DNA of 17,378 nt from Candidatus Rifleibacteriota bacterium (lineage in GTDB: Bacteria > Muiribacteriota > Ozemobacteria > Ozemobacterales > Ozemobacteraceae). The position numbers and the translations under genes are program-made. The stretch covers positions 1 to 17,378 of the forward strand of contig JBNJGH010000072.1 in assembly GCA_051747585.1 (NCBI GenBank), in the 5' to 3' direction. Shown piece by piece: positions 75-4,096 of this stretch (positions are counted from its first letter, which is position 1; the number at the start of each line of letters is the position of its first letter). The notes under the pieces were generated by a model. That model saw only the letters and a program-made list of their open reading frames with translations. It was not told where the DNA came from and searched no databases.

Positions 75-99
75 AGATTGCTTCGCTTCGCTCGCAATG
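75..99 (-). repeat. REP-like palindromic element, larger part (interrupted by the IS110; remainder ATGACA at 1342-1347)
   Basis: 75-99 is agattgcttcgcttcgctcgcaatg. Joined to 1345-1347 (aca), the minus strand reads TGTCATTGCGAGCGAAGCGAAGCAATCT, with an attgc(77-81)/gcaat(94-98) stem. It resembles a widespread intergenic GTCATTGCGAG-type repeat I recall; only one copy is in the window. Confidence 0.75.
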
Positions 100-111
100 T
101 GCTGTATTAAA

Positions 112-117
112 AGTCAA
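112..117 (-). promoter_or_regulatory. Outward-facing -35 box (TTGACT) of the IS circle-junction promoter
   Basis: TTGACT on the minus strand overlaps the transposase stop codon and lies 17 bp from TATATT (1339-1334) once the ends are joined through one core. Confidence 0.8.
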
Positions 118-1115
118 GCAAAGTTTAATTTTTTTTGATAATCTGGATCAAATTTTTTGCCTGATTTTGCCAAAGCAAACGCCTGTCTCAAAAGCTTATT
201 TGAAACAGCTATTAAGGCAATTCTCCCGTTTTTTCCTTTCTCCACAAGTCTTTGATATAGTCTTTTGCAAGCTGGATTATAATTTGATGCTGACAAAGAT
301 GACATAAACAAGGCTTTTCTCGCTATTCTGTTGCCCTTTTTGGTTATCTTTGGTTTCTTTTTAACCGATGTGCCTGATATAAAGACGTCAGGGCAAAGAC
401 CAGCGTAACTGATTGCCTTTTTGGCGCTCTCAAATTTTGAAAAATCCTCATATACCGCGATTATAGTTGCCGCTAACATTTCGCCAACACCAGGAATTGT
501 AAGATATAGTTCGTAAAGCCTTTTTCTATTTGACTTTGCCACTTCACACAATAGCTTTTTAAGCTCCTTGATATCATTGTTTAATATTTTTATTTTATCC
601 CAGAGGCTGTTTGTTAAAGCGTCAAAATGAATACTTCCATTCTGCAATGCTTCTAATCTATTTGCCATTCTGGTAACATCTTTTTGATATCCGTGAATCA
701 AGTTAAGAATTGCCCGAAGTTCCATTTGATAGTCGGCCTTTGAATAACCAGGATCTGGGTCTCTTTCAAATCCATATCGAGCTAGAACCTTTGCATCAAA
801 AACATCCGTCTTGGCTTTTGTTTTTATCATTGCAGCAAAGGCCTTTATTACCAAAGGGTTTTCAACAACAGTTACAAAACTCTTTTTATTAAAAGCCTTT
901 GCAATTTTTGTGTGATAGATACCAGTGGATTCCATTACTACAAGACAATTCTCTGATTTTAAGTCGAAATGCTTTATAAGCTTATCAACAACCCTTTGAC
1001 TATTCTCTTCAAATCTTTTGCAATTGAATTTTTTACCGTCATAAAGACAGCAATCAATAAATTTTTTTGAAACATCAATCCCAAGGCAAACTCTTGCCTT
1101 CATAACATTTGTCAT
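114..1115 (-). CDS. IS110-family transposase / bridge recombinase (RuvC-like DEDD domain + Tnp domain)
   Basis: Motifs GIDVSK (D), VMESTG (E), KTDVFDA (D,D), LTIPGVG, SYAGLCP-x3-SGTS (putative catalytic Ser), ITKKGN-x3-RKALF, RLVEKGK and ALIAVSNKL. The true start may be ATG 1103, which has AAAGGA upstream at 1120-1115. Confidence 0.96.
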   Translation of the reverse strand: MTNVMKARVCLGIDVSKKFIDCCLYDGKKFNCKRFEENSQRVVDKLIKHFDLKSENCLVVMESTGIYHTKIAKAFNKKSFVTVVENPLVIKAFAAMIKTKAKTDVFDAKVLARYGFERDPDPGYSKADYQMELRAILNLIHGYQKDVTRMANRLEALQNGSIHFDALTNSLWDKIKILNNDIKELKKLLCEVAKSNRKRLYELYLTIPGVGEMLAATIIAVYEDFSKFESAKKAISYAGLCPDVFISGTSVKKKPKITKKGNRIARKALFMSSLSASNYNPACKRLYQRLVEKGKNGRIALIAVSNKLLRQAFALAKSGKKFDPDYQKKLNFA

Positions 1116-1137
1116 CCTTTCTAAATTTTTGTAGAAT

Positions 1138-1327
1138 GACCTTACCTTAAACTATCATCGTAACGATGCAGATATTAGTAGCAACCTAATGTGCTGTCCA
1201 GTTTTAGGGTAAGGGGAAGGTGTGCTAAACATTGCGAACGGTATCAGAGTACCAATGACAAGTAATTAGCTTAATCACCTTCCTTTTTCTTTCTCCTAAA
1301 GCTTATCGGAAAAAGAAAAAACTTACA
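1138..1327 (-). ncRNA. Bridge RNA (5' hairpin, target-binding loop, donor-binding loop); ends approximate
   Basis: Three consecutive stem-loops: 1284-1296/1308-1320; 1215-1222/1276-1283 with inner stems 1224-1228/1266-1270 and 1240-1243/1250-1253; and 1140-1151/1203-1214. Loop segments match the target (1253-1260, 1230-1237) and the donor (1189-1197, 1156-1162). Confidence 0.88.
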
Positions 1328-1333
1328 TAATCC

Positions 1334-1339
1334 AATATA
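1334..1339 (-). promoter_or_regulatory. -10 box (TATATT) of the circle-junction promoter
   Basis: TATATT lies 2 bp inside the left end, directly upstream of the predicted bridge RNA. Confidence 0.8.
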
Positions 1340-1392
1340 CGATGACAGTTTACAGGTTTTGTTTGTGGTTTTGCGGCTTAGGGTAGTAAGGA

Positions 1393-2655
1393 TTAATTAA
1401 TAATTTTAAGGGCGAAGTCGGCATAGGGGCTGGACGGAAAGGTTGTTCGCAGAATTTTAAGCACTCTTTGCGCTTCCTGCCGGTTTCCCATTTCGTTCAG
1501 AATTCTGATAATATAGTAGAGTGAGCCCTCTTTAACCGCTTTGTTGTTTGAGTTTTCAAAAGCCTTTTTAAAGCCGAAGTATGCCTTGGTACAAAGTCCT
1601 GTCGCATATTCTGAGTAAGCACTTAGAAATTGGTAGCGATCGAGGGGTACATTTTTCGGGTCCGGTTTGAATTGCTTCAAAATTTTCAATGCTCCCTGAG
1701 GGTTTCTTTCTTGAATATAGCATTCAGCAAGCAAATAGGACGCTTTTTGAAATTCACTGTCACTCAACCCTCCATAGAGAGCATCGGTTAATGCGATACG
1801 TGCCGACAAGTATTCGGCCTCATCAAAAAATTTCATACCCCGAGAAAGGTTTTCGCCGGCCTTCAAGGGTCTTGAATTATCTATGAGAGTTTTTTTTATA
1901 AAATCTGCAGAATATTGGTTCATCACCTCTTCGGTTAAGCCGTTAAAAGAAACCGCAAGCTCATTGCGCACATTTCCGCTTTCCATAAGTCTTTTAATAA
2001 ATCTTTTAAACGCATTGCTGCCGAAAGTTTTCAGCAAAAACCTTATTTTAAGATAATTTTCCACATATTTTTCCAGAGAAATCGGGTTGCCATCAGGGTT
2101 TTCGTCTTCGCCTCCGACATCCTGGAGATTGAAGCCCTTGCGCGTTAAAGCCTTAATGCGTGCCAGCCCCTGGTCGGCCGCGTGCACTGCAGTTCCTTCT
2201 TTAACCCACATGGGCAAAGCATCGTAAGCACGAAGTCCCATTATATCTGCCATTATTGCATGAACCATTTCATGGGTCATTTCTTCAATAAGAGTTGCCT
2301 GACCGTTTATCAGGAAATCAAGATCCAGATAGATATAATGAATAACCTTACGACCGGCGGTGTACACTGACTGTCTCTTGCCTCTCAGTCTTATACCGTT
2401 GTGGGTAAGATGATCAGAGAACAGAACTATGATATACATTTTTTCTCTTGGTTCTATTCCCAAAGTTCTGTTAATTTTTTTAAATGATTCCTGATAAACA
2501 AAAGGAAGATCTGCCAGAATTTTGCTAAAACCAGAAGAGTTCTTGAACTTTCCATTATAACTGGTATCGACATGCAAAACAGCAGAAGCAACTTGCGGGA
2601 CAACAATAATAAGCAAAACAATGAATACTTGAATTGAAACTCTTTTTTTACTCAT
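1393..2655 (-). CDS. Exported HEXXH zinc-metallopeptidase-like (peptidase MA/gluzincin-like) protein with C-terminal TPRs
   Basis: Signal peptide (MSKKR + hydrophobic stretch + ASA), THEMVH followed by PMWVKEGTA, TPR-like helices (ASYLLAECY, SLYYIIRIL) and a FPSSPYA end. Confidence 0.75.
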   Translation of the reverse strand: MSKKRVSIQVFIVLLIIVVPQVASAVLHVDTSYNGKFKNSSGFSKILADLPFVYQESFKKINRTLGIEPREKMYIIVLFSDHLTHNGIRLRGKRQSVYTAGRKVIHYIYLDLDFLINGQATLIEEMTHEMVHAIMADIMGLRAYDALPMWVKEGTAVHAADQGLARIKALTRKGFNLQDVGGEDENPDGNPISLEKYVENYLKIRFLLKTFGSNAFKRFIKRLMESGNVRNELAVSFNGLTEEVMNQYSADFIKKTLIDNSRPLKAGENLSRGMKFFDEAEYLSARIALTDALYGGLSDSEFQKASYLLAECYIQERNPQGALKILKQFKPDPKNVPLDRYQFLSAYSEYATGLCTKAYFGFKKAFENSNNKAVKEGSLYYIIRILNEMGNRQEAQRVLKILRTTFPSSPYADFALKIIN

Positions 2656-4096
2656 TTTTTTCCGCCTCTAACCCTTCTGATTTTTGTGAGTCGGCAACAA
2701 TCTTATCTTTTGCCGCTCTTATTTGAGAAGCAAGAAGATTATTGGTAACAACTTCAGGCCGGGCCAAAAGTTTGTCAAAAGTTTTTACCGGTTCAGACAA
2801 AAGATCATTTGCATGCAAAATCATTGCGTAATGAAAATCGACTTCAGCCGAAAGCTCTTTATTGTTTTCATATAATGAACCTATGATTTCAAGGGCTTGC
2901 GCATAGCTACCATTTTTATAATAAGCCCATGCCAGGGTATCCTGATTGAAAATAAATCCGGGCAGCAGTTCTACTGATTTTTTGGCCATTTCAAGAGCCT
3001 GAACCAGCTCTGTATCGGATTCAATAAAAGCATAAGCAAGATTATTTAAAACAACCGGATTTTCAGGTTCCAGTTCCAGTGCCTTTTTATAAGCCGGAAT
3101 AGCATTTTTAAAGTTCTGATAACTTAAATTCAATTCACCAAGGTGTTGCCATAAAAAGGCATCATTTTCCTGCAAAGATGCGGCCTCTGAAGCGCATCTT
3201 ACTGCCTGCTCACGATTATTGGCCAAATCATGGGCAATACTAGTTTTATAAAGATAAATTGGATTCTCGGGCTGAAGCTCACAGGCGCGTTGCAAATGTG
3301 CCAATGACTGCTGAGGCGTATGACTTGCAGGTGATGAATCGATCAATGCGCTGCCGAGAACATAATGCAGAGGCGCAAAATCTTCTTTTTTATCTAAAGC
3401 TTGACGGGCAATGCTGATCGCAGTATCGGTTCCACCTGCATCATAAGCTATTTGAGCTTTAACGTACTGTTTTGTTTCGTGGGGTTGAAAAGATAACAGC
3501 AGGAACGAAAGCAGAATTGTTGCCAGCGGCAATATAAATAGAATATTAGCAAACAAAAACCGTTTCCATTTCTTTATGTCATCGTTGCCAACCATTTTAA
3601 GCCTGGCTCTGGCCGCAACTCCCAGATATCCTGCAAACCAGACAGGCAAGAATACAATAGCAAGCAATGAAATGCGGGTTTTATTATAGCCTGAAGGGCC
3701 TACTCCCTGCGCTACCGGCCCAAATACTACAACCTCAATACAGCTGGTTAGAAAAATGGTGACCAAAAGTTGTACAATAGTAAAAACGCCGGCCTGCCAA
3801 TAACTTTCCGGACAGGCTGGAAGCCTGAAAACCCTTTTTAAAGCCCAGTAAAGACCTCCGGCAAACAAAAAGACAGTCGAGATAGTGCCGCCAATTGTTA
3901 AACCGCTTTCGATCGGACTCTTCAAACCAAGCTCAAAAGCAAAAGCCACAGCCGCAAGGATAAGAAAAAATGGAGTAAGAAAAAACAGGTAACGCTCGCG
4001 CCTGGTATTTTGTGCCAGATCAAGCCTGGCGCCACACATGACGCAGTAGCCAGTATGAATGGGACTGTTTTTACCGCACTCAGAACACTTTTTCAA
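2648..4096 (-). CDS. Zinc-ribbon / multi-pass membrane / TPR protein
   Basis: TTG start with GAGGT upstream; N-terminal CSEC-x10-CVMC; about five hydrophobic segments; TPRs (LWQHLGELNL, AYKKALELEPENPVVLNNLAY, DTLAWAYYKNG). Confidence 0.8.
   Translation of the reverse strand: MKKCSECGKNSPIHTGYCVMCGARLDLAQNTRRERYLFFLTPFFLILAAVAFAFELGLKSPIESGLTIGGTISTVFLFAGGLYWALKRVFRLPACPESYWQAGVFTIVQLLVTIFLTSCIEVVVFGPVAQGVGPSGYNKTRISLLAIVFLPVWFAGYLGVAARARLKMVGNDDIKKWKRFLFANILFILPLATILLSFLLLSFQPHETKQYVKAQIAYDAGGTDTAISIARQALDKKEDFAPLHYVLGSALIDSSPASHTPQQSLAHLQRACELQPENPIYLYKTSIAHDLANNREQAVRCASEAASLQENDAFLWQHLGELNLSYQNFKNAIPAYKKALELEPENPVVLNNLAYAFIESDTELVQALEMAKKSVELLPGFIFNQDTLAWAYYKNGSYAQALEIIGSLYENNKELSAEVDFHYAMILHANDLLSEPVKTFDKLLARPEVVTNNLLASQIRAAKDKIVADSQKSEGLEAEKNE

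Follow-up and report, generated by a model that had tools for sequence, protein, structure and literature searches.

A candidate IS621-type bridge recombinase element directed at host repeats in Candidatus Rifleibacteriota

The element and its recombinase

The window analyzed here, a 17,378-nt stretch of a Candidatus Rifleibacteriota genome (contig JBNJGH010000072.1), carries on its minus strand an IS110 element whose parts are collected in Table 1. In a domain search of the recombinase, annotated in the public record as a 329-aa protein with its start at 1103, both PF01548 (DEDD RuvC-like) and PF02371 (Tnp, with the catalytic serine) were detected above cut-off in the 333-aa version, and the only solved relatives found were the recombinases of ISCro4 and IS621 (E about 3e-29). 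The five residues listed in the table were invariant in 23 of 23 aligned proteins and align with the catalytic set named for IS621 (PMC11208158). Upstream of the element, and oriented as it is, lie genes for a peptidase-MA-like TPR protein and a membrane TPR protein (1393-4096, minus), read-through from which could express a linear copy of the element.

Taken together with the RNA described below, these features point to an intact IS621-type IS110 insertion sequence (1343-97, minus) with a bridge system that has its own target and donor, a reading to which we assign a probability of about 0.9. The preliminary description of this DNA had proposed an intact orthologous system of this type, and the recombinase family, the catalytic residues, the three-part RNA, the guide polarity, the promoter and the covariation were all found to be present. 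It counts against this reading that only one full copy was assembled in the genome of the window (G000). A scan of the genome contigs with the single protein gave 196 pattern matches, none of them confirmed, and the plasmid collection searched gave no match to the element.

Table 1. Features of the IS110 element and its flanks (positions in the window)
Feature	Positions	Strand	Basis or remark
Right target arm and body of host CGTC-like repeat	75..96	-	
IS110 element, core to core, 1,247 bp	97..1343	-	Empty alleles in C81 and C325; homologues with the same boundaries
Right AT core copy	97..98	-	
Left donor arm (element right end)	99..105	-	
Putative -35 box TTGACT, overlapping the stop codon	112..117	-	
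IS110 recombinase, 333 aa from first ATG	114..1115	-	D14, E62, D104, D107, S247
Second internal GTC-AT site, at the RNA end	1136..1140	-	One public contig (run X5 record 24) stops there, joined to a repeat half
Predicted bridge RNA, approximate ends	1138..1327	-	Fold and consensus fold
Donor-binding stem-loop	1140..1214	-	Fold and consensus fold
Right donor guide (1163-1157) and handshake GA (1156-1155)	1155..1163	-	
Left donor guide	1189..1197	-	9/9 match
Target-binding stem-loop	1215..1283	-	Fold and consensus fold
Right target guide (1237-1231) and handshake GU (1230-1229)	1229..1237	-	
Left target guide, 7 nt and core	1255..1263	-	As DNA, also an internal target-like site where stubs end
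5' hairpin, 13 bp	1284..1320	-	Fold and consensus fold
Putative -10 box TATATT	1334..1339	-	Predicted promoter; spacing from our reading of the circle string
Right donor arm	1337..1341	-	4/5 matched by the right donor guide
Left AT core copy	1342..1343	-	Core-binding guide bases and handshake logic
Left target arm, 7 nt, ending in the host-repeat TGTC tag	1344..1350	-	Empty allele in C81

Bridge RNA, guides and core

As the preliminary description had anticipated, the minus strand of the RNA region folded into three stem-loops (z -3.67). The plus strand folded at least as well (z -4.73), which counts against the reading given above, in such a way that folding energy does not fix the strand, and its assignment rests therefore on the guide polarity, the G-U pair and the promoter. 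The 13-bp hairpin with one U-G pair on the minus strand was recovered on folding; on the plus strand these two bases do not pair. Also the order of hairpin, target loop and donor loop, and the guide polarity of the IS621 bridge RNA, were found in the element as claimed. In the consensus fold of 7 sequences 6 of the 42 pairs are compensatory, and an Rfam search gave four weak matches only, all far below the gathering scores. A promoter-like site at 1109-1137 (plus, 10/12) points antisense into the bridge-RNA region, 9 such sites being found against 4.5 expected.

When the element ends are joined, the two boxes of Table 1 are separated by 17 nt, generating a match to the sigma-70 consensus that exists in the circle only; a circle-junction promoter of the same kind was described for IS621 (PMC11208160). 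As expected, a scan for promoters in the linear sequence did not return it. The circle joint was looked for in four runs, all of them in the form of contigs, from which rare forms are dropped, and was found in none of them, and the single RNA run among them gave no coverage of 1138-1327. Twenty runs had been screened, 16 of them with small word shares, and two of these 16 were among the four examined.

Every string quoted in the preliminary description is present at its position, and the four guide segments it reported are indeed readable: all four matches occurred together in 0 of 20,000 dinucleotide shuffles. The longest exact matches across the core measure 8, 8, 9 and 7 nt, and taken singly they have shuffle frequencies of 0.0078, 0.0066, 0.0012 and 0.022, respectively. 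In a 7+2+5 frame, the matches were 7/7 for the left donor, 4/5 for the right donor, 5/7 for the left target and 5/5 for the right target. The left target guide had been placed at 1260-1253, a position that has to be shifted to 1263-1255 (5/7 at non-core bases), the last two bases of the former segment, UG, opening the inner stem, an arrangement seen also in the IS621 bridge RNA of the Durrant supplement. For both right guides the reported matches are real, but the final G is a handshake position and not a guide base.

As for the core, given before as CAT or AT, our reading of the register is that it is AT and not CAT, the shared C being position 7 of both target and donor. The 2-nt core was found at both ends of the element and as a single copy in the empty sites (C81 and C325), and in each of the 20 parsed loci the guide bases that bind the core are AT, although the parser demanded an AT-containing motif in the target loop of these loci. 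If the core is AT, two Watson-Crick pairs are made by the handshake bases before the exchange and four after it, and by our own reading the handshake bias of IS621 (PMC13626964) runs in the same direction. An AT core is functional even for IS621 (PMC11208158). The same bridge system with a 3-bp CAT core would agree with the presence of CAT at both element ends and of a C common to all the complete homologues viewed, but it is highly improbable: the 7+2 register sets AT at positions 8-9, in such a way that the donor then aligns with the 14-nt donor of IS621, the base after the AU of each right guide is a handshake position, and published orthologue rows carry AT at the core columns.

The guide-to-flank covariation foreseen in the preliminary description was studied in relatives. 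A metagenome scan gave 80 loci, the 14 closest of which (L010-L023, 42-49% identity) were counted together with six from genomes; L024, L025 and L042 were viewed, and the other 63 fall outside the counts. In the 20 parsed loci, guides fitted their own flanks better than the flanks of elements that have other guides, with scores of 4.38 versus 2.49 of 5 for the right target (n=16), 5.06 versus 4.29 of 7 for the left target (n=16), 7 versus 6 for the left donor (n=16) and 3.2 versus 1.6 for the right donor (n=19). The permutation values of the four comparisons (0.002, 0.003, 0.06 and 0.0003) overstate the effect because the 20 loci represent about three lineages with duplicates. In 3 of 16 loci (L015, L022 and L023) the right flank fits a sister guide rather than its own, which may reflect either a bridge RNA acting in trans or an assembly chimera.

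In Ca. Rifleibacterium amylolyticum (G042, whose contigs are those of G059, a member of the window's family), the right junctions match the right guide at 5/5 in 8 of 9 cases, four of these eight being apparently outside repeats, and seven left flanks match the left guide at 4-6 of 7 positions. Among 8 distinct near-identical left ends, 8 of the 15 variable columns fall within the 12 non-core target-guide columns of 185. A pattern match at L093, with no recombinase nearby, was treated as chance. In run X1, record 4 (window 1285-1347) is a left-end variant with a different target-loop sequence, from a related population.

The target repeat and comparison with known systems

As judged from the guides and the empty alleles, the element targets the TGTC-AT head of a CGTC-like host repeat; that the target is a repeat abundant in the host went unmentioned in the preliminary description. 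Full-pattern copies of this repeat number 122 in the genome of the window and 152 in a genome of the same family (G018), and none was found in five genomes of the same genus; 71 of the 74 genomic sites with at most one mismatch to the guides are repeat copies. The repeat has a TGTC/CGTC tag, AT next to it as the first stem bases, head-to-head dimers and a high copy number. The tag, the AT and the dimers are common to the CGTC-tagged REPs (PMC3733652), for which a stem of 8-9 bp is given; the stem of the repeat is imperfect, with five clear pairs by eye. The target of metagenome locus L010 closely resembles the NTS motif printed for the NTS/SRM repeats (PMC11893778). In G000 the degenerate SRM consensus gave 15 matches, none of them the target repeat, and the empty sites of both the window and L010 fail it.

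The empty target reported in the preliminary description stands as far as the 14-nt target is concerned, which is intact in C81, whereas the empty alleles of the two joined flanks sit on two contigs, C81 and C325; because of this the flank join in the window may be an assembly chimera or a rearrangement. On balance we favor that the flanks were paired either by the assembly, joining two insertion loci, or by a real rearrangement made by the element: C81 begins at the left flank, next to which lies an empty repeat, and at the end of C325 a different left flank leads through an empty core into the 99-bp right flank of the window, although no examined contig spans the element. Since the 5-nt right arm is common to the two loci, the guide analysis holds in either case.

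We compared the element with IS621 and ISCro4/IS622 (PMC11208160, PMC11208158, PMC13626964, 10.1101/2025.05.14.653916). Common to them are the recombinase domains and catalytic residues, a left-end RNA with a 5' hairpin, a target loop and a donor loop, the guide polarity, the 7+2+5 register, the handshake bias, the junction promoter, a similar donor, and a host palindromic repeat as target, the repeat itself being different. The recombinase is distant from both, the core is AT in place of the CT of IS621, the right end is very short, with only 15 nt after the stop codon, unlike in IS621/ISCro4, and the guide-coding DNA matches the minimal target at 11/11 versus 9/11 in IS621. In Supplementary Data 1 of Durrant 2024, AT stands at the core columns, within GTC-AT-TGCGA, in about 17 of the 20 orthologue rows listed (by eye). 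Some of these orthologues share the right target guide and loop layout of the element, but their left donor guides differ, and its 9-nt donor guide is absent as a guide from the searchable Durrant files, though other supplements may hold the element. ISPpu9/MITEPpu9 (PMC12288879) and the REP-targeting IS110s (PMC1525189) show IS110 elements in palindromic repeats and mosaics, as here, and no IS110 targeting of dRS3 was seen in the accessible part of PMC9778887. Already published are thus the IS110 bridge class, REP targeting by IS110s (PMC1525189), AT-core tolerance (PMC11208158) and AT-core orthologues on the same repeat base. A literature search returned no paper on IS110 in Riflebacteria. 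The element would add a distant, intact AT-core bridge recombinase with fully readable guides, useful for ortholog screens and in itself unsurprising.

By analogy with IS621, the element would circularize, and its joined ends would make a sigma-70 promoter from which a bridge RNA of about 190 nt would be transcribed from the left end. The donor loop would read the circle junction and the target loop the head of the TGTC/CGTC-tagged host repeat, with strand exchange at the AT core by the DEDD and Ser recombinase. Within the clade, the guide positions that read the repeat tag and the core stay constant and the distal ones are retuned to different repeat subfamilies, a natural case of target-loop retuning. 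The left-end stubs and left-junction repeats described below are probably by-products of the residence of the element in host repeats.

Left-end stubs and repeats beginning with the left junction

Three genomes hold left-end stubs whose end coincides with the DNA for the left target guide, which is an 11/11 minimal target. In G000, a stub of about 88 nt (C28:30709-30592, minus) ends in left-guide DNA and is joined at the core to a repeat half, and this junction is the sole 14/14 target in the genome. Two other stubs, of 67 nt (C14:23474, minus) and about 37 nt (C5:1677, minus; diverged and derived from a related element), have their ends elsewhere than at a core. In all, the stub lengths are graded, at about 12, 37, 67 and 88 nt. 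A decayed stub of the same form as that in C28 was detected in G042 (L110), and in G041 (L094:780-1050, contig C452) two left ends lie in tandem, joined so that the second starts precisely on the core within the guide-coding DNA; the two 121-bp copies differ at four positions, one of them within the guide. In a contig from another study (run X5 record 24, corresponding to window 1135-1347) the whole RNA-coding left end is joined to a repeat half at 1137. Record 13 of run X2 breaks off at the left guide, 7 letters being unseen, and is taken as a hint only.

Contigs of G042 that stop at the left guide (L098, L116, L117 and L121) were rejected as stub evidence because contigs there extend for 122-125 nt inside the element at either of its ends, and the join in L118 and the indels in L102, L113 and L122 at the same point were treated as scaffold artefacts. 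In the same genome, L110, L123 and L106 are decayed left-end scars joined to repeat halves or tails. The recombinase pieces in run X5 are only about 87% alike.

The motif of the left junction, or leader, occurs 44 times in G000, three being the element and two stubs and the other 41 host repeats (for example, C1:402-416, C71:4923-4937 and C291:1633-1647), and once each in 2 of 86 other genomes of the phylum, one of which carries the element clade. We attribute the leader to the element on the ground that a 46%-identical element in a different host begins likewise and carries the matching guide; its element-specific bases amount to 7 nt beyond the core, because TGG occurs also in the hairpin arm. 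The leader has two alleles, CG and TA, and the donor has the same two in the clade. Leader modules lie in the repeat-dimer slot in 19 of 48 cases, the repeat itself in 99 of 216 and other GTCAT-tagged modules in 2 of 193, a difference whose Fisher value (3e-13) overstates because module copies are not independent. They are found in the slot with both spacer types and in both orientations, and often end by regenerating the repeat head. They hold the left element end only, with a target-like right boundary, and not the two ends expected of a non-autonomous IS110.

That the stubs ending at left-guide DNA are ordinary microhomology deletions or slippage, without any action of the recombinase, has in our judgment a chance slightly below even. 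There are 8 nt in common between the guide-coding DNA and every target repeat, and 5 nt between it and the right junction, and the stubs of C14 and C5 end away from any core; however, the tandem copies of L094, with their junction at a core and their four differences, are better explained by a sister element having inserted than by fresh slippage, and fusions at internal GTC-AT sites recur (G000 C28, G042 L110 and run X5). For the left-junction repeats, the explanation that we lean to is that they are one or two old insertion scars in a host repeat module, spread by gene conversion or host repeat-copying, as suggested by the existence of graded stubs, by the mosaic repeat arrays, by the hairpin without a leader in G024, and by G018 (67% complete), where the repeat is abundant and neither the leader nor a close recombinase was found. 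Such a scar on both dimer arms and with both spacer types would still require several independent events, and three matches to the GIY-YIG and Y1 families (flanks of two read) yielded no gene flanked by repeats. No tagged repeats surround the 99-aa GIY-YIG protein, which may be a UPF0213-like protein, or the Y1 protein in the loci read.

It is doubtful, on the other hand, that these repeats are non-autonomous passengers of about 90-150 bp copied into the repeat core by the bridge recombinase through a half-match. The right-donor arm of the element and a target-like left arm would be available as passenger ends, and the near confinement of the leader to G000, the same start in the 46%-identical element, the occupancy of the dimer slot like that of the repeat itself and unlike that of other GTCAT modules, and the match between leader and donor alleles are consistent with it, as are half-site recombination reported in vitro (10.64898/2026.08.31.748434) and RD-only, one-sided boundaries in expanded IS110s (10.64898/2026.08.14.744561). 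MITEPpu9 (PMC12288879) adds plausibility to a module moved by a recombinase, but it is a non-autonomous element that keeps both ends, whereas the modules here lack the left-donor end and have only 7 specific nt. Moreover, the hairpin body occurs without the leader in 4 of 20 untruncated cases by our reading, and in 33 of 64 hairpins by a stricter motif, target-target recombination fails in IS621 (PMC11208158), and no circle of a module was observed.

Joining both kinds of remains, it is conceivable but unlikely that the bridge recombinase itself builds part of the host repeat landscape, through self-insertion at the guide gene and half-match copying of the module. Since the left-guide DNA is a perfect minimal target, the element might recombine into its own guide gene, yielding left-end stubs and RNA-only copies, and a module of about 100 bp, with a right-donor arm and a target-like left arm, would be copied into repeat heads with the target regenerated at each insertion. 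A partial precedent for self-targeting is a row of Durrant file 5 that starts with IS621's own donor-guide DNA; the literature found on IS110 bridge RNA and self-targets, in the parts available, consisted of reviews only. If true, the CGTC-type repeat module, apparently without a dedicated transposase in the CGTC-tagged REPs (PMC3733652), would have an RNA-guided mobilizer, half-match copying would bear on the spread of such repeats, and self-recombination at the guide gene would be a hazard to reckon with in designing bridge editors that are expressed in cis. At the start of one contig of G000 (C236:1-150), a long perfect inverted duplication surrounds a leader module, either as a fold-back artefact or as a real palindrome.
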